Origin: Candidatus Aenigmatarchaeota archaeon
GTDB lineage: Archaea > Thermoplasmatota > Thermoplasmata > Halarchaeoplasmatales > Halarchaeoplasmataceae
Reading direction: 5' to 3'
Length of the DNA: 64,000 nt
Assembly: GCA_046537845.1 (NCBI GenBank)
Contig: JBKHKA010000004.1
Coordinates: 24,586 to 88,585 of the forward strand
Positions 37,769 through 59,903 of this stretch are shown piece after piece. The position numbers and the translations under genes were made by a program. The notes beneath the pieces were generated by a model. That model was not told the DNA's origin. It saw only the letters and a program-made list of their open reading frames with translations, and ran no database searches. Within the stretch, counting starts at the first letter, position 1; each line of letters begins with the position of its first letter.

Positions 37769-37769
37769 G

Positions 37770-38549: not shown

Positions 38550-38555
38550 AAAAAG

Positions 38556-39656: not shown

Positions 39657-39678
39657 GATAGTTAAAGGAGAGATATAC

Positions 39679-40857: not shown

Positions 40858-40897
40858 AGATTGAATACAAAATGGAATAGAAAAAGAGGTAGATAAA

Positions 40898-41749: not shown

Positions 41750-41750
41750 G

Positions 41751-43064: not shown

Positions 43065-43948
43065 TTATGATGGAGAAGCTTGGCTTATATCTTGGATGTG
43101 TTATCCCGACAGAACAGTATGCCTATGAGATGTCCATCAGGGAAGTACTTCCCCGATTTGATATAAAATTGACGGACCTGGACGAAGCCACTTGCTGTGG
43201 AGCTCCTCTCAGAAATATAAACTTGTTCACGACTATGTACCTTTCCGCGAGGAACATGGCGCTCTGTGAAAAGGAGGGCATAGATCTCTACGCTCCCTGC
43301 CCGATATGTCACCTGGCTTTGACCGAGGCAAAGGAGAAGTTGGAAGAAAATCAAGAGTTGAAAGACAAGATAAATTCAAAGCTGGAGGAAGAGGACTTAC
43401 GATACGAGGGAACTACGGAACTATATCATACACTGGATCTACTGCATGACGTGATCGGGTTGGACGAGATAAAAGATAAGGTGGAGGAACCTTTAGAAGA
43501 TATCACCTTCGCAGCTCACTACGGTTGTAATTCCATCCGACCTAACGCTCTTCCGAGACCCGATGATTCCGAAAATCCCCGAAAGCTGGAAGAACTTATG
43601 GAGGGGATCGGGATGAAAACGGAAGATTATCCGGAGAAACTCAACTGCTGCGGGGGTCAAGTAATATTGGATTACAACGAATCAGCCCTGACCAAGGCCG
43701 GCGAAAAAATCGAGGCGGTGCAGAATCAGGGATTCGATGGCATGTCGACGGTCTGCCCGTGGGGTCACAGGATGCTTGATTCTAAACAGGACAGCGCCGC
43801 CGATACCATAGGAGGATCCTTGGACCTGCCGGTGTTGTATTATATTCAACTCTTGGGGATAGCGATGGGCATCGATCAATCTAAGTTAGGACTAGAATTA
43901 AACCTGAGTCCTATAGATAAATTAGATATCATCGAGGAGGTTGAATGA
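43061..43948 (+). CDS. hdrB: Heterodisulfide reductase subunit B (two CCG domains)
   Basis: CCG domain cysteine patterns are present (..ATCCGAP.., ..NCCGG..). It overlaps the hdrC stop. Confidence 0.85.
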   Translation: MIMMEKLGLYLGCVIPTEQYAYEMSIREVLPRFDIKLTDLDEATCCGAPLRNINLFTTMYLSARNMALCEKEGIDLYAPCPICHLALTEAKEKLEENQELKDKINSKLEEEDLRYEGTTELYHTLDLLHDVIGLDEIKDKVEEPLEDITFAAHYGCNSIRPNALPRPDDSENPRKLEELMEGIGMKTEDYPEKLNCCGGQVILDYNESALTKAGEKIEAVQNQGFDGMSTVCPWGHRMLDSKQDSAADTIGGSLDLPVLYYIQLLGIAMGIDQSKLGLELNLSPIDKLDIIEEVE

Positions 43949-43949
43949 T

Positions 43950-45932: not shown

Positions 45933-46375
45933 CAGAAAATAAAGATTTCGAGCCGAAGATAATAGCTTTTCTATGCAACTGGTGCAGCTACGCCGGGGCC
46001 GACCTGGCCGGTGTGAGTAGAGAACAGTATCCTCCAAACATTTTGAACATGAAGGTCATGTGTTCTTCGAGAGTTTCTCCAGAACATATTTTCGACTCAT
46101 TTCAGAAAGGTGCCGACGGTGTTCTCATCGCGGGATGTCACCCCGGCGACTGCCACTATATCGACGGAAATTATAAGACCATCAGGAAAACAGAACTGAT
46201 GTGGAAGATGCTGGAGGATTTTGGTATAGATCCTCACAGATTGAGACTGGAATGGATATCATCCGCTGAAGGAGGCAAGTTCGCTAGCATGATGAGAGAG
46301 ATGACAGAGGACATACGGGAATTGGGTCCGCTGGAGATGAACGGTCATTCCAAGGGAGAGGATAAAGATGAGTGA
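45929..46375 (+). CDS. mvhD: Methyl-viologen-reducing hydrogenase delta subunit
   Basis: IIAFLCNWCSYAGADLAG matches the MvhD signature. Its ATG overlaps the hdrA TGA (ATGA). Confidence 0.9.
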   Translation: MTENKDFEPKIIAFLCNWCSYAGADLAGVSREQYPPNILNMKVMCSSRVSPEHIFDSFQKGADGVLIAGCHPGDCHYIDGNYKTIRKTELMWKMLEDFGIDPHRLRLEWISSAEGGKFASMMREMTEDIRELGPLEMNGHSKGEDKDE

Positions 46376-47348
46376 AGACAAGAAAACCATAGGATTTTAC
46401 TGGTGCGCATCTTGTGGCGGGTGCGAGATCAGTGTGTTAGATATAGACGAGATGATCTTGGACGTGGTCGAGAAGGCCGACATCAAATTTTGGCCGTGTG
46501 CCATGGATCCAAAATATGATGACGTAAGAGCCATGAACGACGATGAGTTCGATTTCATATTCATAAACGGCTCCATACGCTCCGAGGAGAACGAGGAGAT
46601 GGTAAAACTGCTGCGGAAGAAAGCCAAAAACGTGGTGGCTTACGGCTCCTGTTCCAGTATTGGCGGATTGTTCGGTTTGGGTAATCTTCACAGCAGTCAG
46701 GAACTGCTTGATAAAGGCTACAATACTAGATCTACTGACGAAGGTCCGATGCCTAAAAAAGTAAGTAAAGTTGAAGAAGGGGAATTGGAACTTCCAGAAT
46801 TGACACTTCATGTGACTCCACTAGAGGACGTCATAGAGGTCGATTATTATATCCCCGGATGTCCTCCCCTGCCGGTCCAACTTGAGGAGGCGTTCCCGGC
46901 GCTTTTGGACGACGATACCGAAGTGGGGAAATACGATTTCATCTCGGAAAAGAGCGTATGCGACGAGTGCCCCATGGAGAGAGAAGAGAAGAATATAGAG
47001 AGGTTGATCCCGATACAGGAGAAAATGGACATCGACCCGGTGGAATGTTTGCTGGACCAGGGTGTCCTATGCATGGGTCCCGCTTCGGCAGGTATGTGTG
47101 AAGCTGCCTGCCCCTCGGTTGGTCATCCCTGCATCGGCTGTAACGGACCTACAAGAGAAGTTGCGGACCAGGGAGGAAGGATGGCTTCGGCCTTGGCGTC
47201 CGTGATCGCTATCGAGGGAGAAGAGAGAAAGACGGAAGAGGATATCAGAGATGCGATGGAGAGTGTGAGAGATCCGACTGGATCGTTCTATAGATTCAGT
47301 CTTCCGACCAGCATCTTGAGATATAAAAGAGGGGATACCGATGAGTGA
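46368..47348 (+). CDS. mvhG: F420-non-reducing [NiFe] hydrogenase small subunit
   Basis: FYWCASCGGCEISVLD is the proximal Fe-S cluster motif of NiFe hydrogenase small subunits. Confidence 0.85.
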   Translation: MSEDKKTIGFYWCASCGGCEISVLDIDEMILDVVEKADIKFWPCAMDPKYDDVRAMNDDEFDFIFINGSIRSEENEEMVKLLRKKAKNVVAYGSCSSIGGLFGLGNLHSSQELLDKGYNTRSTDEGPMPKKVSKVEEGELELPELTLHVTPLEDVIEVDYYIPGCPPLPVQLEEAFPALLDDDTEVGKYDFISEKSVCDECPMEREEKNIERLIPIQEKMDIDPVECLLDQGVLCMGPASAGMCEAACPSVGHPCIGCNGPTREVADQGGRMASALASVIAIEGEERKTEEDIRDAMESVRDPTGSFYRFSLPTSILRYKRGDTDE

Positions 47349-48801
47349 AAAGAAGAAGATATCCATAGATCCTATAACGAGGTTAGAAGGCCACGGTAAG
47401 ATAGAGATATTTTTGGATGATGAGAAAGAAGTGGAGAACGCCTATCTTCAGGTACCGGAGTTCAAGGGCTTTGAAAAGTTCTGTCAGGGAAGAAGGGCAG
47501 AGGACATGCCCACCATAACTAGCAGGATATGTGGTGTATGTCCGGTAGCCCATCATCTTGCTTCGACAAAAGCTTTAGATGCTGCCTATAACGTAGAACC
47601 GCCCGAGCCGGCGGAGAAACTGAGAGAACTCTTCTATAACGGCTATATCTATGCGGATCATCTTTTACACTTCTACTATCTAGCCAGTCCCGATTTCCTG
47701 GTCGGCACGGACGCCCCGAAAGAAGCGAGGAACATATTGGGGGTTATAGAGGAAGTTGGAGTCGATATAGGAAAGAAGGTCATCAAACAGAGGGGCAAGG
47801 GTCAGGAGATCATCCGCATGCTGGGGGGAAAGGCGGTACATCCGAGCTTCGGTGTCCCCGGTGGCGTGGTGAAATCACTAGATAACGAAGAGAGAGAGGA
47901 ACTGATAGAGTTGTCCGACGATATGGTCGATTTTGCAGAGTTCACTCTTGACCTGTTCAAAGATGAAGTGCTGAGTGAGTTTGAAGAGCCGATAAAAGAA
48001 GATCGTTTGGAGACCTATAGCATGGGTCTGACCGAGGACGGAGAACTCAGCCATACCGGAGGTATCGTGAATGTGGTGACCCCGGATGGTGAAGATCTTA
48101 CCGATTTCTCTGGCGAAGATTATCTTGACGTTATCAGAGAACATAAGGAATCCTGGAGTTATATGAAATTCCCGTATCTGAAAGAGGTGGGATGGGAAGG
48201 ATTCGTGGATGGTGAAGATTCAGGTGTGTACCGTGTCGGCCCGTTGGGCAGAGTGAACGCATCCGAGGGCATGAAAACTGAGAAGGCCCAGGAAGGATAT
48301 GAAGAACTCTTCGAAATGTTGGGATATCCGGTCCACTCGACATTGGCTTACCACTGGGCCAGGTTGATAGAGGTCCTTCAAGCCGCTGAGTTGGTTCAGA
48401 AATTGGCACACGACGAGGACCTGGAAAGCGATAACATCCGGAACGAGCCCGGGGAACCGGGAAAGGGTGTAGGTATCGTGGAAGCGGCGAGAGGGACGCT
48501 GATCCACGATTACGAATTGGACGAAGATGGATTGGTTAAAGATCTCAATCTTATTGTAGCTACCACCCACAATGCGGCACCTATATCGATGAGTATCAGA
48601 GATGCTGCCAAAAAGTATATCGACGCAGGAGATGTTCAAGAAGGGATGCTCAACAGCGTCGAGAGAGCTTTCAGGGCTTACGATCCGTGCCTGGCCTGTG
48701 CTACACACTCCGCGATGGGAGAGACGCCCTTGAAGGTCAATATCTATGACAAGGACGGAAAAAATTTGAAGGAGGTCACCCAGGGGATAGGTGAAAGCTA
48801 G
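47341..48801 (+). CDS. mvhA: F420-non-reducing [NiFe] hydrogenase large subunit
   Basis: The N-terminal RICGVCPVAHHLAS and the C-terminal DPCLACATH are NiFe-ligating CxxC pairs. A roughly 30-aa C-terminal tail after His suggests maturation-protease processing. Confidence 0.9.
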   Translation: MSEKKKISIDPITRLEGHGKIEIFLDDEKEVENAYLQVPEFKGFEKFCQGRRAEDMPTITSRICGVCPVAHHLASTKALDAAYNVEPPEPAEKLRELFYNGYIYADHLLHFYYLASPDFLVGTDAPKEARNILGVIEEVGVDIGKKVIKQRGKGQEIIRMLGGKAVHPSFGVPGGVVKSLDNEEREELIELSDDMVDFAEFTLDLFKDEVLSEFEEPIKEDRLETYSMGLTEDGELSHTGGIVNVVTPDGEDLTDFSGEDYLDVIREHKESWSYMKFPYLKEVGWEGFVDGEDSGVYRVGPLGRVNASEGMKTEKAQEGYEELFEMLGYPVHSTLAYHWARLIEVLQAAELVQKLAHDEDLESDNIRNEPGEPGKGVGIVEAARGTLIHDYELDEDGLVKDLNLIVATTHNAAPISMSIRDAAKKYIDAGDVQEGMLNSVERAFRAYDPCLACATHSAMGETPLKVNIYDKDGKNLKEVTQGIGES

Positions 48802-48995
48802 AATAGGTAGTATATATTTAAATCATGAACAAGTGATGGGGACATTTCGAAAGATGGTCTGTGCACCCCTATTCAAGTAGATTCTATCAAATCGAAGAGT
48901 TTAAATCTATCTTTCATAATTTGAAAGCGGTTTTACATAAAAAAACAAATTGGATTAGTTGGGTAAAACTTGGAAGAACAAAAAAGGTGAAAAAA

Positions 48996-50891
48996 ATGGA
49001 TGAATATGAGAAAGTATATGAAGAATCATTAGAGAACCCTAGATCATTTTGGGCAGACGCGGCTGAAGATATAGAATGGGATGAAAAATGGGATCACGTT
49101 TTAGATGAGTCTAACAAACCGTTCTATAGGTGGTTTTCAGGAGGAAAGCTCAATACCTGTTATAATGCAGTCGATTATCATATCAAAGATGGCAGAGGTG
49201 ATCAAGATGCTATCATATATGATAGCCCAGTAACAGATACGATAGAGAAATATTCCTTCGAAGAGTTGAAAGAGCGGGTTTCAAAGATCGCGGGATTCCT
49301 GAGAGAACTCGGGGTCGAGAAGGGCGATACGGTAGTTATCTACATGCCCATGATACCCGAGTCTCTAATGGCCATGTTAGCGTGCGCACGGATAGGCGCC
49401 GTTCATTCCGTCGTGTTCGGCGGTTTTGCATCCAATGAACTGGCGATCAGAGTGGATGATGCCGAACCCGACGTTATACTTTCTGCATCATGCGGGATCG
49501 AACGGGACGAGGTCATAGAGTACAAACCTCTTCTTGACGAGGCGATAGAACTGGCGGAGAACAAGCCCACGAAGTGCGTTATCAAGCAGAGACCCGAGTA
49601 CGAAGGCGAACTTATCGAGGGGAGAGACTATGATTGGGACGAGCTGGAAGAAGAGGCCGAACCCGCAGACTGCGTCTCTGTAGGTGCTAATGATCCTCTT
49701 TATGTGTTGTATACTTCTGGAACCACGGGTAAGCCCAAGGGAGTCGTCAGAGATAATGGCGGACACGCCGTGGCATTGAAATGGTCTATGAGAAATGTTT
49801 ATGGGGTAGAACCCGGAGACGTTTACTGGGCCGCTTCAGATGTCGGCTGGGTCGTGGGTCATTCTTATATCGTCTATGCACCGCTCTTGATCGGCGCTAC
49901 CACGGTCATGTACGAAGGTAAACCTGTTGGAACTCCTGATCCAGGTGCGTTTTGGCGGGTCATCTCTCAGCATGACGTCGACGTGTTGTTCACAGCTCCT
50001 ACAGCCATCAGGGCTATAAAAAGAGAGGATCCAGAGGCGGAGTACTTTGAAGATTACGATGTTTCCGGTTTGGATTCGCTCTTCCTAGCGGGTGAAAGGA
50101 CCGATCCCGATACCTATCATTGGGTTTCCGATCTGCTGCAAGTCCCGGTTATCGACCACTGGTGGCAGACGGAGACAGGGTGGCCAATCGTAGGGAACTT
50201 CAGAGGATTAGAGCAGTTCCCGATCAAACCGGGTTCGGCGACCAAACCTATGCCCGGATATGACCTTCAAATATTGGATCCCCAGACTGGAGAGGAGTTA
50301 CCTCCTGGCGAGACCGGAGTGATCGCGATCAAGCTTCCTTTACCACTAGGGAACTTCATCACTTTGTGGAATAACGATGAGAAGTTCAAGCAGGAATATA
50401 TGGATCCCTTCCCGGGCTATTATTTCACCGGCGACGCAGGCTTCGTCGACGAGGATGGCTATGTGTCCATCATGGGGCGGGTAGATAACGTCATCAATGT
50501 AGCTGGACATAGACTCTCTACCGGCAGTATGGAAGAAGCAGTCGCGAAGCATGATGCGGTAGCGGAGTGTGCAGTGGTAGGTATCAATGACGAGTTGAAG
50601 GGTGAAGTGCCCCTTGGCTTCCTGGTATTGAAGTCGGGTGTCGATCAAGATCATGAGGAAATAAAATCGGAAGTTATACAGATGGTCAGGGATGAAGTGG
50701 GTCCAATTGCGTCTTTCAAGAAGGTGCTGATCGTCGACGAGCTGCCAAAGACACGATCTGGTAAGACGCTGAGAGGGACCATGAAGAAGATAGCCGACGG
50801 TGAAGATTACTCCGTACCTTCAACTATCGCGGACGAGGGAGCTTTAGATACTATAGAAGAGGCGATAGAGGAAGAAGGGGTAGAAAAGTAA
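48996..50891 (+). CDS. prpE: Propionate--CoA ligase / acetyl-CoA synthetase family (PrpE-like)
   Basis: YTSGTTGKPKGVVRDNGGHAVAL resembles the PrpE variant of the ACS motif. The ATG at 48996 follows AAAAAGGTGA. The ORF-track frame starts upstream at 48861. Confidence 0.8.
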   Translation: MDEYEKVYEESLENPRSFWADAAEDIEWDEKWDHVLDESNKPFYRWFSGGKLNTCYNAVDYHIKDGRGDQDAIIYDSPVTDTIEKYSFEELKERVSKIAGFLRELGVEKGDTVVIYMPMIPESLMAMLACARIGAVHSVVFGGFASNELAIRVDDAEPDVILSASCGIERDEVIEYKPLLDEAIELAENKPTKCVIKQRPEYEGELIEGRDYDWDELEEEAEPADCVSVGANDPLYVLYTSGTTGKPKGVVRDNGGHAVALKWSMRNVYGVEPGDVYWAASDVGWVVGHSYIVYAPLLIGATTVMYEGKPVGTPDPGAFWRVISQHDVDVLFTAPTAIRAIKREDPEAEYFEDYDVSGLDSLFLAGERTDPDTYHWVSDLLQVPVIDHWWQTETGWPIVGNFRGLEQFPIKPGSATKPMPGYDLQILDPQTGEELPPGETGVIAIKLPLPLGNFITLWNNDEKFKQEYMDPFPGYYFTGDAGFVDEDGYVSIMGRVDNVINVAGHRLSTGSMEEAVAKHDAVAECAVVGINDELKGEVPLGFLVLKSGVDQDHEEIKSEVIQMVRDEVGPIASFKKVLIVDELPKTRSGKTLRGTMKKIADGEDYSVPSTIADEGALDTIEEAIEEEGVEK

Positions 50892-51098: not shown

Positions 51099-51713
51099 AT
51101 GGATGAAAAAGATCAGCTCGAGCCTCGTACGATAATCAAGAAACCGCCGCCCAAGATAGCTGATCCCGCTTGTTTGGGTTTGATCGGTCTTGCCATAGCT
51201 GCTTTGGTACTAGCTTTTACAGACCTAGGTTTTGCCTCGAGCAAAATGGAATCCCTGATTATCCCTTGGACTCTGTTTCTAGGAGCTACGGCCCAGTTGG
51301 TAGCTGGAATAATGGATTTTAAGAGAGATAACATATTTGGAGCTACTGCATTCACAACATATTCTATGCTCTGGTATTCTGTTTCACTCACGTTGTTCAT
51401 AACTATATTCACGTCCATCGATTTTGATCTCACGCATTATGCGCACGGGCTGCTAGGATTTTTGATCTTCAGTATCATATTGACAGGCGCCTCGTTGATG
51501 ACGAATAAAACTCTCCTGGCAGTCCTTATATCTATCGACGTCGCCATTCTGGCTCTCGTCTCTCATATCTTGGTCGGTACAGGAGCGGTTCCTGTGGGTG
51601 TTTCGCTTCTTTTTGTCTCGATATTCTCTTTCTACGGAGCCGCCGGAGTGCTGCTCAACAATATGGCGGAAAAGGAGATATTGCCTTTAGGGGAACCTCT
51701 CTGGGAGCCATAG
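51099..51713 (+). CDS. satP: GPR1/FUN34/YaaH (SatP) family acetate/succinate channel
   Basis: ADPACLGLIGLAIAAL resembles the NPAPLGLxGF signature. It has six TM helices. Length is 204 aa. Confidence 0.7.
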   Translation: MDEKDQLEPRTIIKKPPPKIADPACLGLIGLAIAALVLAFTDLGFASSKMESLIIPWTLFLGATAQLVAGIMDFKRDNIFGATAFTTYSMLWYSVSLTLFITIFTSIDFDLTHYAHGLLGFLIFSIILTGASLMTNKTLLAVLISIDVAILALVSHILVGTGAVPVGVSLLFVSIFSFYGAAGVLLNNMAEKEILPLGEPLWEP

Positions 51714-51751: not shown

Positions 51752-52915
51752 TCATATGACCCCACGATCCTCCAATCTTTCTATTTCCTCCTCGGTGTAA
51801 CCCGCATCATTCAGTATCTCTCGCGTATGTTCACCTTTTTGAGGAGGCGGTGTTCTGAATTCATCAATATCCTTCTTTGATCTAGCGGGAAATCCTATCT
51901 GATCGATCTCCATCCCAGAGAAGTCCAATGAACCGATCAGATCTCTCTCTTCGACATGTTGACTTTCGAAGACTTCTTTCAAATTATTTACAGGAGATAT
52001 CATCACTTCGTTTTCTTTTGATATCTTCTTCCATTCCTCGAAAGTTTTCTTCTTGAATTCTTCCTCGATTATCTTTCTGATCCTTTCCTTCTTCTCGGAA
52101 AACTGCTGGTCTTTAAATTCTTCTCTCCCTATCAATTCACAAAAATTCTTCCAATATTTTTCTTCATAGGCAGCTAGGGCGAAGTATCGCCCGTCCTTTG
52201 TCTCATAGATATCATAAAAGGGATATCTTCCCGTCAATTCTGTCTCTCTCGCTCGCGGGACTTCCTCCTCCAAGAGAGGCTGCCAGGCGATGCCCGTGGA
52301 GAACGAAATCAGACAATCCAAGATGGAGATGTCTATATACTCTCCCCTGGAGTCATTGAGTTCTCTATCAAGGAGTGCGTTGATTATGGAAAAGGCGGAA
52401 AAGAGTCCCGCGGTCATCACCGATATGGGAAAGCCAGGGATCGCAGGTTTACCATCCTTCGACCTGGTGATATCGATAAGGCCTCCTTCGGAAGCATAAT
52501 TTAGATCGTGGCCGCCTTTATCCTTTAGTGGACCGGTCTGGCCATAACTGGATAAAGAGCAGTAGATTATATCCGAGTTGACCTCTCTCACCGAGTCGTA
52601 ATCCACCTTCAGTTTTTCGACGACGCCGGGACGGAACTGTTCAAAGACCACGTCGGCGTCTTCGGCGAGGTTCATGAATATCTCTTTACCTTCTTCTTTT
52701 TTAAGATCGATCTCAATTGCCTTTTTATTCCTGTTCAGCATCAAGAATGGGGCTCCTTCTCCCCCGATGGAAGGTTCCATGTCTCTAGCATAGTCTCCTG
52801 TTTCTGGGTCCTCTATCTTTATAACTTCCGCTCCCAGGTCGGCCAAAAGCATTGTAGCGTAGGGACCAGGGATCAATCTAGTCATGTCCAAGATCTTGAT
52901 TCCCTCTAATCTCAT
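51752..52915 (-). CDS. Family III CoA-transferase (CaiB/BaiF/Frc family)
   Basis: The N-terminus MRLEGIKILDMTRLIPGPYATMLLADLGAEVIKIE is diagnostic of CoA-transferase family III. Confidence 0.85.
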   Translation of the reverse strand: MRLEGIKILDMTRLIPGPYATMLLADLGAEVIKIEDPETGDYARDMEPSIGGEGAPFLMLNRNKKAIEIDLKKEEGKEIFMNLAEDADVVFEQFRPGVVEKLKVDYDSVREVNSDIIYCSLSSYGQTGPLKDKGGHDLNYASEGGLIDITRSKDGKPAIPGFPISVMTAGLFSAFSIINALLDRELNDSRGEYIDISILDCLISFSTGIAWQPLLEEEVPRARETELTGRYPFYDIYETKDGRYFALAAYEEKYWKNFCELIGREEFKDQQFSEKKERIRKIIEEEFKKKTFEEWKKISKENEVMISPVNNLKEVFESQHVEERDLIGSLDFSGMEIDQIGFPARSKKDIDEFRTPPPQKGEHTREILNDAGYTEEEIERLEDRGVI

Positions 52916-52967: not shown

Positions 52968-53114
52968 TATAAGACTGTCCATCGATGGCTATAAAACTAC
53001 GGCTCAATCATAGTCTTTGTATCATAACGCAAGCGGATATATAAAAAAGTTTATAAAGCTTATGGGACATATTATACTTTGAGTACCTTTAGAAGAGGGA
53101 AGAGGAGAGATAAT

Positions 53115-54326
53115 ATGAAGCAAGAAAAAGACCCTATAGAGAAGTACGTATCTGCGTACGAAGAAGCTAACGACGACGAAGAGTGCAAGAAAAAAGTGGC
53201 CAACAGACTGCTAAAAGACGAGTTGATCGAAGTAGCCGGAGAGAACGGATTAGATGTCAGTAAAAATCAGACCAAAGATGAGATAGCAGAGAAGCTGATA
53301 AAACCGGAAGTCTACAATCAGATAGTCAGCGAAAGAGAAATTTCCCAGGAGGTAGGGGAAAAGAAAGAAGGAATTGAAGGCGAACTTACTCCCCCAGAGC
53401 CGCCTGAGGTCAAAACAGAGGTCCTCGAACCCTTATCGGACCTAATATCCGATTCAACCTTGAAAGGATCCGAAAAGGTTAACGAGTTATGGATAGACGG
53501 GATGAAAGGGATCGAAGAGAACTTGGAAGGAGTAACGGAACAGAACCTCGAATACTGGGAGGAACTTGAAGATGAATGGATGGAAAAGGCAACTGAATTC
53601 CAGGAACAGATCGACGAACTAAGAGAGAGATCCGTCCTGCCAGAGGACAAGACGAAAGAACTATCGGTGATATGGAGGAACTTCTTCAATAAGATGATGG
53701 CCAGAGTGAAAAAGGCAAATCAGCGTACAAGGGAAAGGCATGAATCTTTAACTCAGCTCGTAGAAAAACATACGGAAAAAGCAAGAGAGACCTTCGATGA
53801 AGAGAGCGAGAGTATAGATACGGGGAAACTACTTGGTCTTTGGTCGGATTTTTCAAAAGATTTGGGAAGCGAGTTAGAGAAGACATTGGATAACTATAGG
53901 AGAGATTACGAGGCAGTAGAAGAGACATGGAAAAATTTTGCCGATAAGACAGAGGATCTCATCGACGATCTCCAAGAAAGTCAAGAGGAACAGGTAGAAG
54001 AACTCTATGAAATGTGGAATTCAAATTTTGAGTTCGTACAAGATAACGTGGAAAAAGGGTTTGAAGATTATATGGATGCCTATGAAATCACGAGAGAGGA
54101 ATTCGAAAGACATAGCCGGAAGGTGACAGAATCTCTTTTTGAATTGGCGGAGAACGTAGAAGAAAATTATTCCAGGTTGATGGAGAGCTACCAGAAAACC
54201 TTAGACGAAGGGTACAGCGGTATGTTTTCCATGGCAAACCCATTAGTTCCAAAAAAGGATGAAAAAGAGTTGGAACGACTCAAAGAAAGAGTGGAAAAAT
54301 TAGAAAAGAAAATAGAGGAGGATTGA
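53115..54326 (+). CDS. Phasin-like acidic coiled-coil protein A, with an N-terminal SAP/Rho_N-like helix-hairpin motif
   Basis: The ATG at 53115 follows GGGAAGAGGAGAG. The ORF-track frame starts at 53079. The motif LLKDELIEVAGENGLDVSKNQTKDEIAEKLI is present. It has repeated E[ED]LYxxW blocks (VEELYEMWNSNF). Confidence 0.6.
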   Translation: MKQEKDPIEKYVSAYEEANDDEECKKKVANRLLKDELIEVAGENGLDVSKNQTKDEIAEKLIKPEVYNQIVSEREISQEVGEKKEGIEGELTPPEPPEVKTEVLEPLSDLISDSTLKGSEKVNELWIDGMKGIEENLEGVTEQNLEYWEELEDEWMEKATEFQEQIDELRERSVLPEDKTKELSVIWRNFFNKMMARVKKANQRTRERHESLTQLVEKHTEKARETFDEESESIDTGKLLGLWSDFSKDLGSELEKTLDNYRRDYEAVEETWKNFADKTEDLIDDLQESQEEQVEELYEMWNSNFEFVQDNVEKGFEDYMDAYEITREEFERHSRKVTESLFELAENVEENYSRLMESYQKTLDEGYSGMFSMANPLVPKKDEKELERLKERVEKLEKKIEED

Positions 54327-54331
54327 GAATA

Positions 54332-55171
54332 ATGGACGAAAAAAACCGAGGAGATAGAAATCTGTTCAGATCCATGGATTATCTTTCCAGCATGGATTTC
54401 AGTGGATTCACAAGAGAATTCGTAGATCAACAGGAAAGGTACATGACCGACGTAGACCAACTGTTAAACCAGTCTTCAGAATTTGGTAAGGACGTGAGGA
54501 AAGTGGTCGAAGAGACCAATGATCAGTATGAAGAACTGATGGACCTGTGGTCCGATCTTTCCGACATGTCCGAAGAATTGGTCGAGAAGAACGTTAAGGA
54601 AGGATTTCAAGAGGATATCCAAGAGTATAACAGGGAGGTTGGTGAGAAGCTGAAAGAACTGGTCAAATCCAGTTATCAAGATGCTGAAGAACTCTATTCG
54701 GCGTGGACAAAGATGTCCGATAGCATTTTCAAGGGCATCAAAGCTGGAACGGGTCCGGATCCTGAGGAGATAACCGAGGCGACGGCAGATTTCCAGGAAG
54801 CTGCTCTTCATATAGCAAAAAGAAACATAGAGGAAAACAACGAATCATTGAGAGAGCTGAGAGAGACACTCGAAGAGATCGCAGAAGAGAGTTCGAACCG
54901 GTTGAAAGAGAACGCTGAATCTAGCGGAGAAGGGTACGAAAAGATGGTGAAGGGCTGGCTTAATACCATCGACGAGATGGAAAGCAAGACTGATAGTTAT
55001 TTAGAGGACCTGAGGGAGAGCTACCTTTCAGCATTCAAACCGTATTTTGGAAGGGGATGGATCTTTCCCTTGTTCCCTTGGCAGCCATCTAGGAAGATGA
55101 GTGAATACGAAAGCGATATAGAGGACCTGAAGAAAAAGATCGAAGAGCTAAAAACTAAGGTGGAGGAATAA
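54332..55171 (+). CDS. Phasin-like acidic coiled-coil protein B (paralog of A)
   Basis: YEELMDLWSDL and AEELYSAWTKM are repeat blocks. The ATG at 54332 follows GAGGAGG. The C-terminus is coiled-coil (EDLKKKIEELKTKVEE). Confidence 0.6.
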   Translation: MDEKNRGDRNLFRSMDYLSSMDFSGFTREFVDQQERYMTDVDQLLNQSSEFGKDVRKVVEETNDQYEELMDLWSDLSDMSEELVEKNVKEGFQEDIQEYNREVGEKLKELVKSSYQDAEELYSAWTKMSDSIFKGIKAGTGPDPEEITEATADFQEAALHIAKRNIEENNESLRELRETLEEIAEESSNRLKENAESSGEGYEKMVKGWLNTIDEMESKTDSYLEDLRESYLSAFKPYFGRGWIFPLFPWQPSRKMSEYESDIEDLKKKIEELKTKVEE

Positions 55172-55204
55172 AACCTCCATCTTTATTTTTTGAGGTAGAT
55201 AACC

Positions 55205-56050
55205 ATGGATAGAGATATTGATATGGAAGATTATTATAAAGAGTTGAGAGAAGATATGCTGACGGTCTGGGAAGATTTTTCTTCTGAGATGGAAGATTTT
55301 CTGGGAGAATTACAGGAGGAAAACGTTGAAGCTTACGAGGAGATGTACGAGGAATGGAAGGACTTCAGCGAACAGATGATGAATCAGAAGAAAAATTTTG
55401 GAGACATCGAGAACTACGTTTCTCTCGCAGATCTTTTTCAACGGTGGGTAAGAGCTTCAAAGGACTTCAGAAATGTAGTCCAGGAAAAGAGCGGAGAAGA
55501 TATCCCCGTCGCTGATTTCGATAATATCTTCTCGGAGTATATGGAAAACCTGAGACTTCTGTTAGGTGAGACCATCGAACTCGGGATGGAACGACAGAGA
55601 AAGGAACAGGAAGATCTTTATGACCTGTGGATGGACGCTTGGTCTAGTCTGGGTGAAGAAGAAGGAGAAAGCATCCCGGACGTGGTCAAGGACGTTCAAA
55701 GTGAATGGATAAAGTCCTCAACCGACCTTTTAAAGATGTGGTCGGAAAGTTTAGAGGAAGGTCAAGCCGAGGACCTTTTCCAGAAAACACAGAAAGAGAT
55801 GCTCAAAAACGCCTCGAACAGCATGGAAGAACTCTTGAGCTCCGAGCCTTATGCTATGTTCCAGGGCAGCTATCTAGATAACTTGCTTGATACGAAGATC
55901 ACGCAGAAGGAACTGCTGAACACCTATCTCGAATCCTTTGGGGTCCCCACTCGGGACGATATACTGAAAGTATACGAATCTATCCACGAGCTGACCTCTA
56001 GAATCAGAGATCTGGAGAGAAGAGTAGACGAGCTCTCAGTAGAGAAGTGA
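55205..56050 (+). CDS. phaE: PhaE-like subunit of class III PHA synthase (paralogous to the phasin-like proteins)
   Basis: It lies directly upstream of phaC. It has EEMYEEWKDF and EDLYDLWMDAW blocks. The C-terminal FGVPTRDDILKVYESIHELTSRIRDLERRVDEL resembles the conserved PhaE C-terminal box. Confidence 0.5.
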   Translation: MDRDIDMEDYYKELREDMLTVWEDFSSEMEDFLGELQEENVEAYEEMYEEWKDFSEQMMNQKKNFGDIENYVSLADLFQRWVRASKDFRNVVQEKSGEDIPVADFDNIFSEYMENLRLLLGETIELGMERQRKEQEDLYDLWMDAWSSLGEEEGESIPDVVKDVQSEWIKSSTDLLKMWSESLEEGQAEDLFQKTQKEMLKNASNSMEELLSSEPYAMFQGSYLDNLLDTKITQKELLNTYLESFGVPTRDDILKVYESIHELTSRIRDLERRVDELSVEK

Positions 56051-56068
56051 ACAGGTGGGGGATATTAT

Positions 56069-57337
56069 ATGAACGAAAATCCTGATCTCACTGATCTACC
56101 GTCCCAAAAATGGATGGAAGGACAGATACAATACATGAAAGACCTTACAAAGAACGTAAAGAAGTTGAATGATGCTCTTGAACTCCTAGCTTCTCAACCC
56201 GAGGTGGAAGTCGGTCAAACTCCAGCTGAAGTGATCTGGGAAGGTGATCTCGCAGAACTTTTACATTTTAAGCAGGAGAACGTGGAGCAAAAACCGCCGG
56301 TACTTTTGGTCTACGCTTTGATTAACGAGGAGTACATATTGGACCTTCAACCGGGCAGGTCGGTCGTAGAATCGTTGTTGAACGAAGGATTAGACGTGTA
56401 CATGATCAATTGGTACAAGCCGGATAAACGTCATCGGTTTGAAACTTTGAACGATTACGTGAATTATTTTATGGACGTCTGCGTGGACAAAGTCAGGAAG
56501 AAAAGGAACAGGGATTCGATCAATATCCTGGGATACTGTATGGGAGGCACGATGTCTTCGATGTATGCCGCTTTATACCCGGAGAAAGTCAAGAGCTTGA
56601 CTTTGATGGCCGCTGGATTGGATTTCGAGGAGGATGAAGGATTATTGAGTCATTGGGCGAACTCCGATTATTTCGACCCAGAAAAAGTGGTCGAGGCCTT
56701 TGGTACCTGTCCTGGAGATTTCCTGGACGGGGCATACCTTGCTTTAGCACCGGTCAATAACACCGTGGGAAAACTTTTGAATCTGGCAGATAACGCTGAA
56801 GACGAGGAATTCGTCAAGATGTTCTTCAGGATGGAAAAATGGATACACGACAGTAAGGATATACCGGGACCAGCTTTCTCAAAATTCGTAGGAGATCTCT
56901 ACCAAAAAAACAAGCTCATAAAAAATGAATTCCATATCGGAGGTGAACATGTAGATATTAACAATATCACCATGCCCCTGCTAACTATTATCGGAGAGTA
57001 CGATACCTTGGTACCTCCAGAAAGCAGTCTTCCCTTCAAAGATAAGGTTCCGAGTGAGAAGACCGAGGTGATGAAAGCGCCGGTAGGTCACATAGGACTC
57101 TCTGTGAGTTCCAAGGTTCATCCGGATTTATGGGGGAAAGCCGCCGAGTGGATAAAAGAGCACGATAGAATCCCATTGAAGAGCATCAAAGGCATCGGCG
57201 AAAAAACGGCGGAAAAATTGAAAGAAGCTTCGGTTAAAGATGGAACAGACCTGAAGCGAGCGGATACAGAAGAATTGTCTGAAAAGACAGGCATCTCTGA
57301 AAATAGGATCGAAAAATGGAAAAAGAGGGCAGAGTGA
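56069..57337 (+). CDS. phaC: Class III poly(3-hydroxyalkanoate) synthase catalytic subunit PhaC with a C-terminal (HhH)2-like extension
   Basis: The alpha/beta hydrolase has the lipase-box GYCMGG (catalytic Cys). Downstream are Asp (GEYDTLV) and His (VGHIGL). The C-terminus is SIKGIGEKTAEKLKEASVKDGTDLKRADTEELSEKTGISENRIEKW. Confidence 0.85.
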   Translation: MNENPDLTDLPSQKWMEGQIQYMKDLTKNVKKLNDALELLASQPEVEVGQTPAEVIWEGDLAELLHFKQENVEQKPPVLLVYALINEEYILDLQPGRSVVESLLNEGLDVYMINWYKPDKRHRFETLNDYVNYFMDVCVDKVRKKRNRDSINILGYCMGGTMSSMYAALYPEKVKSLTLMAAGLDFEEDEGLLSHWANSDYFDPEKVVEAFGTCPGDFLDGAYLALAPVNNTVGKLLNLADNAEDEEFVKMFFRMEKWIHDSKDIPGPAFSKFVGDLYQKNKLIKNEFHIGGEHVDINNITMPLLTIIGEYDTLVPPESSLPFKDKVPSEKTEVMKAPVGHIGLSVSSKVHPDLWGKAAEWIKEHDRIPLKSIKGIGEKTAEKLKEASVKDGTDLKRADTEELSEKTGISENRIEKWKKRAE

Positions 57338-57341
57338 TAAG

Positions 57342-58112
57342 ATGGTTGGTGACAGCGAACCCTACAGGGACCGATTCAAAGACAGGAATGCCCTAGTGAC
57401 CGGAGCATCAAGAGGAATCGGAAAAAAAATTACGAACACACTAGCAGAGTACGGCGCGGATGTGGTCGTCAATTACAACACGAGCCACGAAGAAGCGAGC
57501 GAAACAGCCACGACCGTAGAGTTGGCTGGCGAAGATAGTTGGGTCTATCCGGCAGATATCAGCTCTTTTAAAGAAGTCGAAGAGATGAAAGAAAACATTG
57601 AAGAGAATTTTGGAAAGATAGATATACTGGTGAATAACGCTGGTATAAACAAAGATAAGTTCTTTGCTAAGATGGAAAAAGACGATTGGGAAAAAGTTTT
57701 GTCTGTGAACCTTGACGGAGTTTTCAACTGCTCCAAGATATTTTTAGATGATCTAAGGAGATCCGAATCGGGAAGGATAGTGAACATTTCTTCGGTTGTA
57801 GGCCAAAGGGGTAACCAAGGACAGGTCAATTACGCCTCATCCAAGGCAGGCATTATAGGATTCACCAAGGCGTTAGCGAGAGAGTTGGTGAGAGATGACG
57901 TAACTGTTAACGCTGTTGCCCCGGGATTCATCGCTACGGAGATGGTATTGAACATGCCAGAAAAAATCCAGGAGAAGATAAAAAGTGATATACCCATGGG
58001 ACGCTTTGGAGACCCGAAAGAGGTGGCCGAGACGGTAGCGTTCCTTGCCTCTTCGGATGCATCTTACATCACAGGGGAAGTTTTAAAAGTCAACGGTGGT
58101 TTCTACATCTGA
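57342..58112 (+). CDS. phaB1: SDR family acetoacetyl-CoA reductase / 3-oxoacyl reductase (PhaB/FabG-like) 1
   Basis: ALVTGASRGIGKKI matches TGxxxGIG. NNAG and the YASSKAG YxxxK catalytic motif are present. Confidence 0.8.
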   Translation: MVGDSEPYRDRFKDRNALVTGASRGIGKKITNTLAEYGADVVVNYNTSHEEASETATTVELAGEDSWVYPADISSFKEVEEMKENIEENFGKIDILVNNAGINKDKFFAKMEKDDWEKVLSVNLDGVFNCSKIFLDDLRRSESGRIVNISSVVGQRGNQGQVNYASSKAGIIGFTKALARELVRDDVTVNAVAPGFIATEMVLNMPEKIQEKIKSDIPMGRFGDPKEVAETVAFLASSDASYITGEVLKVNGGFYI

Positions 58113-58134
58113 ATCTATCGAAAGAGGGATACAT

Positions 58135-58965
58135 ATGAAAAGCGATGAAGACCAACAGTTAAAGCTAAAATCATATTTTGAAAACGACGACATAGAAAAC
58201 CTAGATCCCAGCAGTAACCGTTTGGAGGGATTGAATGCACTCGTAACAGGCGGAGGACAGGGCATCGGCAGAAGGATATCACTAGAGTTCGCAAACGAGG
58301 GGGCTAACGTGGCTATAAACGACTTGAGCTCGCAGAAAGATAAGGCGGATAGGGTAGCCCAATATATAGAAGGAGAATTGAACAAAAATACATGGATAGC
58401 CGAAGGAGACGTTTCGGACTTGGACGATATGAAAAAGGTCAAGGAGCAGGTAGAGGAAAATCTAGGTAAGATTGACATATTGGTGAATAATGCTGGGATC
58501 AATAGAGATTCTTTATTCATAAAGATGGACAAAGAAGAGTGGGATCAGGTCTTATCGGTGAATCTTGATGGGGCTTTCAACACCACTCATGTGTTTCTAG
58601 ATCATCTCCGAGAGTCCGATCAGGGCAGGATAATCAATATGTCCTCTGTTGTAGGAGAAACTGGAAATATCGGTCAGGTGAATTACGCCTCCTCAAAAGC
58701 CGGATTGATAGGGTTCACTAAAGCTCTAGCTAGAGAGTTGGTGAGGGATGAAGTCACCGTCAATGCTGTAGCTCCGGGTTTCGTGGATACCCTGATGGTA
58801 AAAAATATGCCTGAGAAAGTCAAGAAGAAAATCCTCGATCAAATACCGATGGGGCGTTTTGCGGAGCCCAAAGAAGTGGCGAAGGTCTTCTGCTTTTTAG
58901 CATCAGAAAAAAGCTCGTACATCACCGGAGAGGTGATAAGGATGAACGGAGGTTTTTACCTATAA
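58135..58965 (+). CDS. phaB2: SDR family acetoacetyl-CoA reductase (PhaB/FabG-like) 2, a paralog of the preceding gene
   Basis: ALVTGGGQGIGRRI, NNAG and YASSKAG are present. The ATG at 58135 follows AGAGGGA. The ORF-track frame begins at 58096, overlapping the phaB1 stop. Confidence 0.8.
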   Translation: MKSDEDQQLKLKSYFENDDIENLDPSSNRLEGLNALVTGGGQGIGRRISLEFANEGANVAINDLSSQKDKADRVAQYIEGELNKNTWIAEGDVSDLDDMKKVKEQVEENLGKIDILVNNAGINRDSLFIKMDKEEWDQVLSVNLDGAFNTTHVFLDHLRESDQGRIINMSSVVGETGNIGQVNYASSKAGLIGFTKALARELVRDEVTVNAVAPGFVDTLMVKNMPEKVKKKILDQIPMGRFAEPKEVAKVFCFLASEKSSYITGEVIRMNGGFYL

Positions 58966-59295
58966 CCACTTAGAGGATCAAAAAACAAGAGGGATGACCG
59001 ACCGAAGGGGGGTCAAATACCCACAGCTTTCGAGGAATTTTTGAAAATTCCTTTGTATCACGAAGAGTTATTCTGAGTGAGAAGAGGAATTCATTTCCTC
59101 TGTATTGCTGGAATCATATTCCACCTATCTCTAGAAATCCTAGGGATTTCAAGAAATTTGCTGGAAAATCTTATTTCCCATCAATTGATGGAATCTCTGA
59201 TTCTAGACAATATCACAGGAAAGCTAACTTTCCTGTTAGTTTCGGCTGTGGGAAAGGATCATCAAACGTAGAAACCCAAAATTTTTGCACACTTC

Positions 59296-59903
59296 CAAAA
59301 AACTCTATAGAAAGATCTCTGTCCAAAGCGGTGGAAAAAGACAAGCTGTCCGCTGAAAAGTAAGAAAAAATCCTCTCCAAGATCGAAACGACCCTTGATA
59401 TAGAGGACCTCCAGGATTGTGACGGTGTGATCGGAGCGGTCAACGGCTACGCCCTCGGAGGCGGTCTTGAATTGGCCTTGAGTACTGACTTTTTGATAGC
59501 CTCTGAAGCGGCTAAATTCGGTCAACCAGAGGTCGGTTTAGGAGTGATACCCGGTTTCGGCGGCACCTTTTTACTAGCCCGGCAGATCGGACCTGCACGA
59601 GCTAAGGAATTGATTTTTACAGGTAAAAGGATAGATGCCGAAGAGGCAAAGGATATAGGGATAGTCAATCATACCGTTGAAAAGGAAGAACTGATGAACG
59701 AAGCCCAGGAGATCGCCCAAAATATAGCCGATAATTCCCCTGTTGCTTTGGACCATGCTAAAAGAGCCATAGAGCATGGAACGGATCATTCGAAGAAAGA
59801 GGCACTCCTGCAGGAAAGCGCTAACTTCAAGGAGTGTTTTGAGAGCGAAGACCAAAAAGAAGGTATGGAAGCTTTCCTAGAAAAGAGAGAACCCGACTTT
59901 TGA
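59296..59903 (+). pseudogene. Fused remnant of a second hbd-crt pair: HADH residues about 47-85 with an in-frame TAA, joined directly to the C-terminal two-thirds of an enoyl-CoA hydratase
   Basis: I translated it by hand: RSLSKAVEKDKLSAEK*EKILSKIETTLDIEDLQDCD|GVIGAVNGYALGGGLELALSTDFLIASEAAKFGQPEVGLGVIPGFGGT...EAFLEKREPDF. Compare hbd (40898) [38 protein letters not shown], and crt (41751) [33 protein letters not shown]...EAFIEKREAKF. Confidence 0.75.

Follow-up and report, generated by a model that had tools for sequence, protein, structure and literature searches.

A predicted class III polyhydroxyalkanoate synthesis operon with two PhaE-related helper proteins in Candidatus Natronoplasma (Thermoplasmatota)

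Introduction

Can an uncultured archaeon that is not a haloarchaeon store carbon as polyhydroxyalkanoate (PHA), and which proteins would it use? This question is raised by a locus of six genes, termed here cc1, cc2, phaE, phaC, sdr1 and sdr2, that fill positions 53115-58965 of a 64-kb stretch of archaeal DNA, which we call the window. A sequence-only reading had described the locus as a class III PhaEC operon with two coiled-coil proteins and two PhaB-like reductases in a host of non-haloarchaeal appearance. It had proposed searches with hidden Markov models (HMMs) for PhaC, PhaE and phasins and a PhaC phylogeny as checks, and its overall picture is upheld by the in silico analysis presented here. 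PHA synthesis in archaea has been documented for the Halobacteria, the Nitrososphaerales and Candidatus (Ca.) Methanoperedens and was most recently predicted for the Archaeoglobaceae. We conclude that the locus is probably a functional PHA synthesis operon of the uncultured, anaerobic, extremely halophilic Ca. Natronoplasma, a member of the order Halarchaeoplasmatales in the Thermoplasmatota. For the Thermoplasmatota no report of PHA synthesis genes was found in the searchable literature, which leaves room for a mention in the founding description of the order (Zhou et al. 2022). New are the host lineage and the two helper proteins; the enzyme core is an ordinary class III synthase that automatic annotation had already recognised.

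The synthase subunits PhaC and PhaE

The six genes were all found on the forward strand in the order given above, with intact reading frames and intergenic gaps of 4-33 nucleotides (nt), as the sequence-only reading had placed them (Table 1). The start of cc1 is the ATG from which the orthologues align and which is preceded by a GGAG-type ribosome-binding site; the mechanical open reading frame (ORF) opens 12 codons earlier, at a TTG. The start of sdr2 was placed by orthologue alignment. With 16-27% Asp plus Glu, 11-14% Lys plus Arg and isoelectric points (pI) of 4.2-5.0, the proteins are rich in Lys and Glu, as had been noticed.

PhaC passes the NCBI class III model TIGR01836 (382.7 bits, cut-off 365.3, E 1.5e-114) and lies far under the cut-offs of the class I and class II models. 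The lipase box that had been read in it as G-Y-C-M-G-G is found at residues 155-160 with Cys157 as the predicted nucleophile, and the Asp and His claimed downstream of it are Asp312 and His341. These three residues align with the lipase box and with the segments 'EDHIVP' and 'SGHIA' of the Cupriavidus necator PhaC catalytic domain (5hz2), that is with residues which we take to be the Cupriavidus catalytic triad C319/D480/H508. Among 173 homologues, Cys, Asp and His are kept in 165, 172 and 168 sequences, respectively, and Trp258 is invariant. The Pfam families matched are PhaC_N, Abhydrolase_1 and HHH_5 (37.9 bits against a threshold of 27), the last of these being a helix-hairpin-helix (HhH) domain that spans residues 370-421. 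An HhH domain has been noted earlier in the PhaC of Haloferax, and a parallel to PhaH, the nucleoid-tethering phasin of Caulobacter, was proposed (PMC12028471). The gene call itself is not new. At NCBI, a protein from a 'Candidatus Natronoplasma sp.' metagenome-assembled genome (MAG) matches PhaC with 100% identity and was automatically annotated as class III PhaC, and the GenBank annotation is already correct.

The PhaE-like protein described as lying immediately upstream of PhaC is indeed encoded there, and its gene ends 18 nt before the start of phaC. Its match to PF09712 reaches 27.3 bits, above the gathering score of 25.7, and extends over profile positions 46-310 of 311. All 12 PhaE orthologues match this family too (best E 7.6e-14). 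They are 273-283 amino acids (aa) long and share the conserved C-terminal motif PYA..QG.Y.DN.LD..ITQ.EL...Y..S...PTRDD.L..YES.HELTSR; a search for a solved homologous structure of PhaE found none. The locus thus has each class III feature that we checked, namely the PhaC model match, the Cys/Asp/His residues and an adjoining phaE, and at the level of sequence it is a class III synthase locus.

The tandem reductases

The products of sdr1 and sdr2 are short-chain dehydrogenases/reductases (SDRs) that are 58% identical to each other. Both match adh_short_C2 (E 1e-64 to 1e-67), and both carry the motifs NNAG, YASSK (YxxxK) and TGxxxGIG, the latter in the forms TGASRGIG and TGGGQGIG. They pass the FabG model TIGR01830 (311.2 bits for sdr1 and 298.1 bits for sdr2, cut-off 297.75) and reach 229 and 219 bits with the PhaB model NF042966 (cut-off 436). 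To the SDR that adjoins phaC in Halalkalicoccus jeotgali they are 46-50% identical, sdr1 being at 50%. An sdr1 orthologue stands directly 3' of phaC in every related locus, and the tandem pair is kept in L001, L004, L005, L007, L008, L009 and L018 (loci described below). The sequence-only reading had seen the pair as consistent with acetoacetyl-coenzyme A (CoA) reductases. Position and motifs speak for this, but the corresponding model is narrowly missed, a point to which we return when the functional assignment is weighed.

The accessory proteins cc1 and cc2

The two genes 5' of phaE had been described as paralogues that encode acidic coiled-coil proteins, and profile comparison agrees: the hhalign probability for cc1 and cc2 is 98%. 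Both proteins are also related to PhaE, with probabilities of 94.5% for cc1 and 93% for cc2. The single cc protein of a second type of cluster from other Thermoplasmata (type B, see Discussion) reaches 98% with PhaE and about 99% (99.1%) with cc1. Shuffle controls covered four pairs, leaving out that of cc1 and the type-B cc protein. Shuffled columns gave at most 2% and reversed profiles at most 12%; shuffles of 10-column blocks gave up to 87%, so that part of the signal between the cc proteins and PhaE comes from a short repeated helical motif and not from end-to-end homology. This motif is a Trp repeat of about 29 residues (h-x-x-W-x-[DEKN]-[FLM]-[ST]) with at least three copies in cc1 and in PhaE and at least two in cc2, and it is visible in the PhaE of Halalkalicoccus too. 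All three proteins end with a similar Pro-[basic/acidic] segment that is followed by a coiled coil. The mean helical hydrophobic moments of cc1 (0.337), cc2 (0.391, the maximum in the window) and PhaE (0.32) lie above those of all 25 other window proteins compared (0.187-0.276). Judged by profiles and repeats, cc1 and cc2 are strongly amphipathic relatives of PhaE with a common Trp repeat, and this kinship bears on what PhaE does.

Orthologues of cc1, at the same position, and of cc2 are present in six other distinct loci each. In cc1, a conserved N-terminal helical domain of about 75 aa is followed by a disordered acidic/Pro linker, long amphipathic helices with the PhaE-type Trp repeats and a C-terminal coiled coil. 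The AlphaFold2 model of the full-length protein, with a mean predicted local distance difference test (pLDDT) score of 70, shows the small N-terminal helical domain, the disordered linker and four very long helices; a fold search of the PDB with it returned only generic long-helix bundles and BAR-type domains at E >= 0.1. The cc2 protein has a conserved KAGTGP loop and a PYFG...FPW...EYE..IE.LK motif before its C-terminal coiled coil.

Are cc1 and cc2 phasins, as the term 'phasin-like' would have it? In part only. They are amphipathic and have sub-threshold matches to phasin families, but no phasin threshold is reached and the profiles place them with PhaE. For Phasin_2 (PF09361, threshold 24.9) the scores are about 21.5 bits for cc1 and 23.3 bits for cc2, and the phasin model TIGR01985 gives 18-23 bits against 99.7, so that the proposed check with phasin models was not passed. 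Apolipoprotein is matched below threshold as well (E 4.5e-5 for cc1 and 1.4e-7 for cc2). Among 20 members of the cc family such sub-threshold matches recur for Apolipoprotein (12), Phasin_2 (8), ApoLp-III (5) and PhaP_Bmeg (2).

We propose that cc1 and cc2 may be granule-surface proteins that evolved from PhaE-like repeats. A different role seems to us possible, if less likely: they might not form a coat and instead be extra PhaE-like partners of PhaC, or regulators of the PhaR or PhaM kind that control initiation and tether the synthase to DNA. Their kinship to PhaE and to no phasin family speaks for this, as does the separate N-terminal domain of cc1 with its helix-loop-helix layout. PhaC moreover has an HhH domain of DNA-binding type, and the Caulobacter counterpart PhaH has been proposed to tie granules to the nucleoid (PMC12028471). 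However, the search for an identity of the cc1 N-terminal domain gave nothing significant. From its look of a helix-extended-loop-helix we had considered a DNA-binding domain of the HeH/SAP/Rho_N kind, and this candidate was kept as no more than a lead when neither sequence nor fold searches supported it: Rho_N (E 0.0048) and SAP_new25 (E 0.066) were matched weakly, each by one of seven orthologues, a profile search of the PDB had no match, and Foldseek found nothing better than E 1.9 for the AlphaFold2 model of the domain (pLDDT 82). The very high amphipathicity and the recurring apolipoprotein- and phasin-type matches suit surface coating. In addition, the position of cc1 and cc2 upstream of phaEC, together with a terminator-like element after cc2, mirrors the haloarchaeal phaRP-phaEC layout with its abundant phasin. 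We therefore prefer to see cc1 and cc2 as candidate coat proteins.

Conservation and phylogeny

Six other distinct MAG loci from the Halarchaeoplasmatales contain the six genes in identical order. Five of these are complete (L001, L004, L005, L008 and L009), and the sixth (L002/L006, one contig) ends inside sdr1. Two further contigs, L007 from Ca. Haladaptatiplasma and L018, which is the window's own sequence, show phaE to sdr2 only, up to the contig end. The kept gene order and a PhaC identity of 60-71% across the loci argue for purifying selection; the identities of the other proteins are given in Table 1.

The PhaC tree that had been proposed as a check was computed by neighbour-joining from the catalytic core (342 columns, 173 sequences, 100 bootstraps). 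In it, the PhaCs of the Halarchaeoplasmatales group together in a separate clade (bootstrap 100) and stand outside a haloarchaeal-type clade of 33 sequences (bootstrap 83). Their grouping with other Thermoplasmata PhaCs has a support of only 21. Neighbour-joining was the only method used for the tree, and its deep nodes lack support. An HhH tail was seen in each of the 10 named haloarchaeal and each of the 11 Halarchaeoplasmatales PhaCs, but in none of the other Thermoplasmata PhaCs. Thus the tree and the distribution of the HhH domain point in opposite directions, and the deep history of the synthase is either one of vertical descent or of an old transfer.

It is possible, if doubtful, that the haloarchaeal subtype IIIA cluster reached the Halarchaeoplasmatales by horizontal transfer in a shared hypersaline habitat. 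Outside the own order, the best named matches of PhaC are all haloarchaeal (43-53% identity). The HhH domain is common to the haloarchaeal-type and the Halarchaeoplasmatales PhaCs and absent from the other Thermoplasmata PhaCs examined, the order phaE-phaC-phaB is the same as in Halalkalicoccus, and gene transfer among halophilic archaeal lineages has been reported to be common (bioRxiv 10.1101/2023.07.03.547478). Against a transfer stand the PhaC tree, with its separate Halarchaeoplasmatales and haloarchaeal-type clades, and an identity to other Thermoplasmata PhaCs that is equally high (46-52%). The accessory genes differ as well: PhaP and PhaR are missing, PhaE is long, and the cc proteins are shared with the type-B clusters (99% for cc1 and the type-B cc protein). 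At 0.43-0.45, the G+C content of the locus does not leave the range of the window. Several genera of the order share the cluster, with a PhaC identity of 60-71%, and any transfer would therefore be old.

Evidence for and against a functional operon

How well does the reading as an operon for PHA synthesis hold? A number of results count against it. PhaE reaches 29.5 bits with TIGR01834, the PhaE model of NCBI, far below the cut-off of 154.95, and the proposed HMM check of PhaE thus succeeded with PF09712 but failed with this model. Both SDRs lie just under the cut-off of the acetoacetyl-CoA reductase model TIGR01829 (293.2 bits for sdr1 and 279.6 bits for sdr2, against 302.1) and score slightly higher as FabG than as acetoacetyl-CoA reductase. 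No Pfam or NCBIfam match of cc1 or cc2 reaches threshold, phasin models included, and BLASTP of both against the PhaP and PhaR of Halalkalicoccus gave no match at E <= 0.01. The block-shuffle control of the profile comparison and the unsupported deep nodes of the PhaC tree belong here too. Genes for a depolymerase, PhaJ or PhaR were not seen in the 64-kb window. Finally, no PHA granules, polymer or activity have been reported for any member of the Halarchaeoplasmatales, none of which has been cultured.

For the reductases, we consider the assignment as PhaB-type acetoacetyl-CoA reductases reasonable, because the margins are small, the genes are linked to phaC and related to the Halalkalicoccus SDR, and the PHA-specific reductases proven in haloarchaea are themselves FabG paralogues (review PMC6631277).

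That the operon is inactive, or that the PhaC-like protein is a hydrolase, a depolymerase or an enzyme of another polyester and no PHA is made, appears very unlikely to us. Besides the want of any reported polymer, this would fit the decayed hbd'-'crt remnant directly downstream, which attests to local gene decay, and a screen of cultured Thermoplasmata genomes in which no phaC was found (bioRxiv 10.1101/2025.05.06.652502). However, all six frames are intact, and order and sequence are conserved across the order, which argues against an inactive operon. The nucleophile of PhaC is Cys and not the Ser of hydrolases, the triad is complete, and the PhaZ model scores 36 bits against a cut-off of 300, which speaks against a depolymerase. 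We therefore keep to the functional PHA operon as the probable reading.

The host

The host is Ca. Natronoplasma and not a haloarchaeon, yet it is an extreme 'salt-in' halophile that shares habitats with haloarchaea. The remark of the sequence-only reading that it looks unlike a haloarchaeon proved right. The HMG-CoA synthase of the window has its best named matches in Ca. Natronoplasma/Thermoplasmatota (84%), Ca. Saliniplasma (78%) and the Methanomassiliicoccales (65-68%), and a 100% identical fragment of it bears the Natronoplasma label. Synteny points the same way: for 13 window genes, Thermoplasmata MAG loci contain counterparts of 46-84% identity, and 9-12 of these 13 are common to any one locus (L005, L001, L004, L009), with matching local order. 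L018, a 4,030-bp contig from a Natronoplasma MAG, is 99.975% identical to window positions 55425-59454. PhaC falls outside the haloarchaeal clade. A haloarchaeal contig, or a recent haloarchaeal origin, was rejected on the HMG-CoA synthase matches, the synteny and the PhaC tree.

The NCBI taxonomy places Natronoplasma in the Halarchaeoplasmatales within the Thermoplasmata. This order has been described from MAGs as 'salt-in' halophiles (PMC11332174), with which the low median pI (4.73) calculated for 47 other window proteins agrees. Natronoplasma MAGs from Great Salt Lake were found to be anaerobic fermenters without terminal oxidases (PMC11287216). The claim that MetK is of bacterial type was confirmed; its gene adjoins that of an archaeal TATA-binding protein (TBP).

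A DPANN (Aenigmatarchaeota) origin, as in the NCBI record of the 95.7-kb contig that encodes P0295, a protein 100% identical to cc1 and named 'MAG: hypothetical protein [Candidatus Aenigmatarchaeota archaeon]', is extremely improbable given the nearest named HMG-CoA synthases (Natronoplasma, Thermoplasmatota and Saliniplasma, then Methanomassiliicoccales), the Thermoplasmata counterparts of 13 window genes, the identity to L018 and a metabolism (transketolase, Bcd/Etf, Hdr/Mvh, methylmalonyl-CoA mutase) too rich for a reduced DPANN genome. Because marker similarity and synteny support Natronoplasma, the Aenigmatarchaeota label is probably a mis-bin or a labelling error. The public labels do conflict, with cc1 under 'Candidatus Aenigmatarchaeota archaeon' and identical or near-identical PhaC, HMG-CoA synthase and DNA under 'Candidatus Natronoplasma sp.'.

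Control elements and genomic neighbourhood

Table 1. Positions of the operon, its putative control elements and neighbouring genes in the window, with the identity of the operon products to the window across related loci (the ranges exclude L018).
Feature	Position	Strand	Description	Identity across related loci
MetK	17470-18624	+	bacterial/eukaryotic three-domain type (S-AdoMet_synt_N/M/C)	
archaeal TBP gene	18667-19215		adjoins MetK	
archaeal thiolase/OB pair	21107-22698		other thiolase candidate, beside HMG-CoA synthase	
methylmalonyl-CoA gene group	31749-35722		methylmalonyl-CoA mutase large subunit, MeaB GTPase, B12-binding subunit, CobA corrinoid adenosyltransferase; 18 kb upstream	
beta-oxidation/Hdr/Mvh array	36629-48801	+	acyl-CoA dehydrogenase (bcd), EtfB, EtfA, thiolase, Hbd, crotonase, HdrC-like, HdrB, HdrA, MvhD, MvhG, MvhA	
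bacterial-type thiolase	39655-40857	+	inside array; Thiolase_N E 3.8e-97, Thiolase_C E 4.8e-41	
acetyl-CoA synthetase	48861-50891	+	domain assignment	
AceTr-family acetate transporter	51099-51713	+	domain assignment	
family III CoA-transferase	51752-52915	-	domain assignment	
putative control region	53017-53058	+	degenerate palindrome and A/T-rich element; predicted function	
degenerate palindrome	53017-53032	+	TTGTATCATAACGCAA, read from sequence	
A/T-rich BRE/TATA-like element	53037-53058	+	ATATATAAAAAAGTTTATAAAG, about 58 nt 5' of the cc1 ATG	
cc1	53115-54326	+	403 aa, acidic, pI 4.45; candidate granule-associated (phasin-like) protein	about 34-48%
cc2	54332-55171	+	279 aa, acidic amphipathic-helix protein, cc1 paralogue; candidate second granule-associated protein	37-53%
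hairpin and T-run	55157-55194	+	G+C-rich hairpin over the cc2 stop codon, then TTTATTTTTT; from terminator scan, looks like a terminator/attenuator	
phaE	55205-56050	+	281 aa; predicted class III PHA synthase, non-catalytic subunit	36-54%
phaC	56069-57337	+	422 aa; predicted class III PHA synthase, catalytic subunit; alpha/beta-hydrolase core and C-terminal HhH	60-71%
PhaC lipase-like box	56531-56548	+	GYCMGG	
PhaC HhH domain	57176-57331	+	HHH_5	
sdr1	57342-58112	+	256 aa; FabG/PhaB-type SDR, probable acetoacetyl-CoA reductase giving (R)-3-hydroxyacyl-CoA	66-80% (both SDRs)
sdr2	58135-58965	+	276 aa; second FabG/PhaB-type SDR, sdr1 paralogue, ~30-aa acidic N-terminal extension	66-80% (both SDRs)
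decayed hbd'-'crt fusion	59277-59903	+	pseudogene remnant just 3' of the operon	

Upstream of cc1, the promoter-like element ATATAAAAAGGTTTATAA is found in all seven orthologous loci. The palindrome in front of it is degenerate in the window and exact (TTGTAT-N4-ATACAA), at the same relative place, in L001 (3210-3225), L004 (4943-4958) and L009 (4137-4171, twice). From this positional conservation in three close loci it may be a candidate operator for some regulator. A regulon defined by this palindrome within the window was rejected, as 3 matches against 2.06 expected are not above chance; a PhaR-like gene is not present in the cluster. The hairpin with its T-run stands at the same place between cc2 and phaE in 7 of 7 loci. 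It suggests partial termination, by which more cc1 and cc2 than enzyme would be produced. A search of the whole window for Rfam families and tRNAs had no match.

The beta-oxidation/Hdr/Mvh array lies about as far away as had been claimed (4 kb), its end being 4.3 kb upstream of the operon. The accompanying claim that it would supply 3-hydroxybutyryl-CoA did not hold. Hbd enzymes of the 3HCDH family give (S)-3-hydroxybutyryl-CoA, which PhaC does not accept, so that the pathways are linked at the shared intermediate acetoacetyl-CoA and not at the hydroxyacyl-CoA. By analogy with the standard three-step pathway, the bacterial-type thiolase of the array is the likely source of the operon's acetoacetyl-CoA; the archaeal thiolase/OB pair is another candidate. 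All genes of the array run in one direction, and the physical coupling of its Bcd/Etf butyryl-CoA module to Hdr/Mvh suggests electron bifurcation or confurcation between crotonyl-CoA/butyryl-CoA and H2. In the study of Natronoplasma MAGs the role of the group 3c hydrogenase was stated to be unclear (PMC11287216).

Between the array and the operon, the genes for acetyl-CoA synthetase, AceTr transporter and CoA-transferase fit a storage of acetate-derived carbon. The CoA-transferase has its best NCBIfam matches, far below the cut-offs, in succinyl-CoA:mesaconate and succinate-glutarate CoA-transferases. Its 74-77% identical counterparts stand directly 5' of cc1 on the forward strand in L001 (1877-3037), L004 (3628-4788) and L009 (2808-3983), and relative to these loci the window gene is inverted. 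The four genes of the methylmalonyl-CoA group are found directly 5' of cc1 in L005, a locus from a soda-lake MAG (1103-4854), the first three at 72-84% identity and the adenosyltransferase at 46%. They hint at a supply of propionyl-CoA for 3-hydroxyvalerate units as in Haloferax, which is speculation by analogy.

The remnant downstream of sdr2 consists of an Hbd part (residues 36-90), which contains an in-frame stop at 59361-59363, and a crotonase part (residues 96-253) fused directly to it at 'DCDGVIGAV'. In tblastn the window Hbd matches it with 56% identity (E 3e-16) and the window Crt with 61% (E 2e-62); nothing similar to a crotonase N-terminus was found upstream. The 158-aa 'crotonase' ORF (59427-59903) might be taken for a seventh gene of the operon; we rejected this reading, since the ORF is the 3' part of this truncated fusion with its internal stop. 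The remnant looks like the result of a deletion in a former hbd-crt pair, an echo of the phaC-crt-thl-hbd-crt layout of the type-B locus L013. The L018 contig ends inside it, at window position 59454.

Elsewhere in the window we noted a 275-aa protein with a strong Ras/Roc small-GTPase domain (9397-10224, reverse strand; Pfam Ras E 8e-29), here in an archaeal genome; its C-terminal ~100 residues were assigned to no domain. Two large proteins are encoded on the forward strand. One (25373-28546, 1057 aa) is a STAND-type AAA_16 NTPase that combines an N-terminal helix-turn-helix with many TPR repeats. The other starts at 60080 and runs past the window end at 64000; it is of surface type, exceeds 1300 aa and has CARDB, InlB B-repeat-like and Ig-like domains.

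Discussion

The following scheme is what we infer for enzyme activity, substrate, cofactor, granule binding by cc1 and cc2, attenuation and physiological role. A thiolase encoded elsewhere, for example that of the array, would condense acetyl-CoA to acetoacetyl-CoA, with the acetyl-CoA coming from fermentation or from acetate via the adjoining transporter and acetyl-CoA synthetase. The tandem FabG/PhaB-type reductases would reduce acetoacetyl-CoA to (R)-3-hydroxybutyryl-CoA, and possibly also 3-ketovaleryl-CoA to a C5 monomer. PhaE-PhaC would then polymerise the monomer on Cys157, assisted by His341 and Asp312. The presumably abundant cc1 and cc2, probable descendants of PhaE-like Trp-repeat proteins in the place that PhaP and PhaR take in haloarchaea, would coat the growing granule, and the hairpin and T-run after cc2 probably allow these coat proteins to exceed the enzymes. 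For a fermenter without terminal oxidase the polymer could be both a carbon store and a sink for reducing equivalents.

An active operon would add a host from another phylum to the PHA producers, and one of rare physiology among them, an obligately anaerobic fermentative extreme halophile. It would also suggest PHA as an electron sink in anoxic brine sediments and offer salt-adapted synthases and a new candidate family of granule proteins for bioplastic engineering. A more far-reaching idea is that of a third class III subtype in the Halarchaeoplasmatales or the wider Thermoplasmata. In it, the duplicated PhaE-like cc1 and cc2 would serve as coat, granules would be tethered to the nucleoid by way of the PhaC HhH domain and the cc1 N-terminal domain, and the polymer would mainly be a redox sink that competes with H2 and butyrate formation by Bcd/Etf-Hdr/Mvh. 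On the present sequence data we regard this idea as unlikely; were it true, PHA would be a significant hidden pool of carbon and electrons in anoxic hypersaline sediments.

How does the system compare with known ones? With bacterial phasins and tethers (Phasin_2/PhaP, PhaF, PhaM and the Caulobacter PhaH), cc1 and cc2 have in common that they are of small to medium size, highly amphipathic, all-helical and encoded beside the synthase, and that the system includes a domain of DNA-binding type, which here sits on PhaC. Unlike the bacterial phasins, they stay below every family threshold and are related to PhaE, and DNA binding by the N-terminus of cc1 is unsupported by the fold search. With the bacterial class III systems (IIIB, e.g. 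Allochromatium vinosum) the locus shares the PhaC family, as the TIGR01836 match shows, and a PhaE that matches PF09712 over nearly its full length and is nearer in size to the bacterial than to the haloarchaeal PhaE. It differs from them in the low TIGR01834 score of PhaE (29.5 bits against 154.95), in the accessory proteins and in the HhH domain, which is reported to be absent from bacterial PhaC (PMC12028471).

The likeness to the haloarchaeal subtype IIIA (phaR-phaP-phaE-phaC with phaB in Haloferax mediterranei, Haloarcula and Halalkalicoccus jeotgali, L003) is seen in phaE directly 5' of phaC, in a PhaC with Cys/Asp/His and a C-terminal HhH domain (core 49% and HhH 40% identical to Halalkalicoccus) and in a FabG-type reductase of 46-50% identity directly 3' of phaC. 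Two small-to-medium non-enzymatic genes lie upstream in both cases, and the proteins are acidic and salt-adapted. However, of the four features of subtype IIIA the locus has the HhH domain and lacks the other three, namely a small PhaE, phaR/phaP upstream and a place in the haloarchaeal clade. With 281 aa, PhaE is larger than its counterparts in Halalkalicoccus (185 aa) and Haloferax mediterranei (20.4 kDa) and than the ~20 kDa typical of the subtype. The upstream genes encode PhaE-related proteins of 403 and 279 aa, large and amphipathic, in which no likeness to PhaP (155 aa) or PhaR (107 aa) was detected. The reductases form a tandem pair where the haloarchaeal cluster has a single one, the PhaC lies outside the haloarchaeal clade and, unlike many haloarchaeal PhaCs, is without a long disordered linker (tail of 55 aa compared with 63-208 aa), and the host, an anaerobe with a strictly fermentative metabolism, belongs to another phylum (PMC11287216).

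The second type of cluster, type B, was found in eight other Thermoplasmata MAG loci (L010-L017) with the layout sdr - cc (~315 aa) - phaE - phaC (~370-380 aa) - crotonase. In several of the eight the layout is incomplete, either because the contig ends or because BLAST detected no phaE or sdr. In L013 the crotonase is followed by thl-hbd-crt and acetyl-CoA synthetase. The MAGs are labelled Thermoplasmata or 'Methanobacteriota', and their sites include cold-seep and South China Sea sediments. Type B differs from the window locus in having one cc gene and not two, one reductase gene, which lies upstream, a crotonase 3' of phaC and a PhaC without HhH domain. It resembles the window locus in belonging to the same phylum, in PhaC identity (46-52% in 7 of 8 loci, 39% in L016), in the PhaE profiles (hhalign 99.7%), in the match of cc1 with the upstream cc protein (99.1%) and in the linkage to thl, hbd and crt genes, which in the window survives as a decayed remnant. 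In a rough survey of pI values, several type-B loci were seen to encode non-acidic proteins, and PHA genes in this phylum are thus not confined to halophiles.

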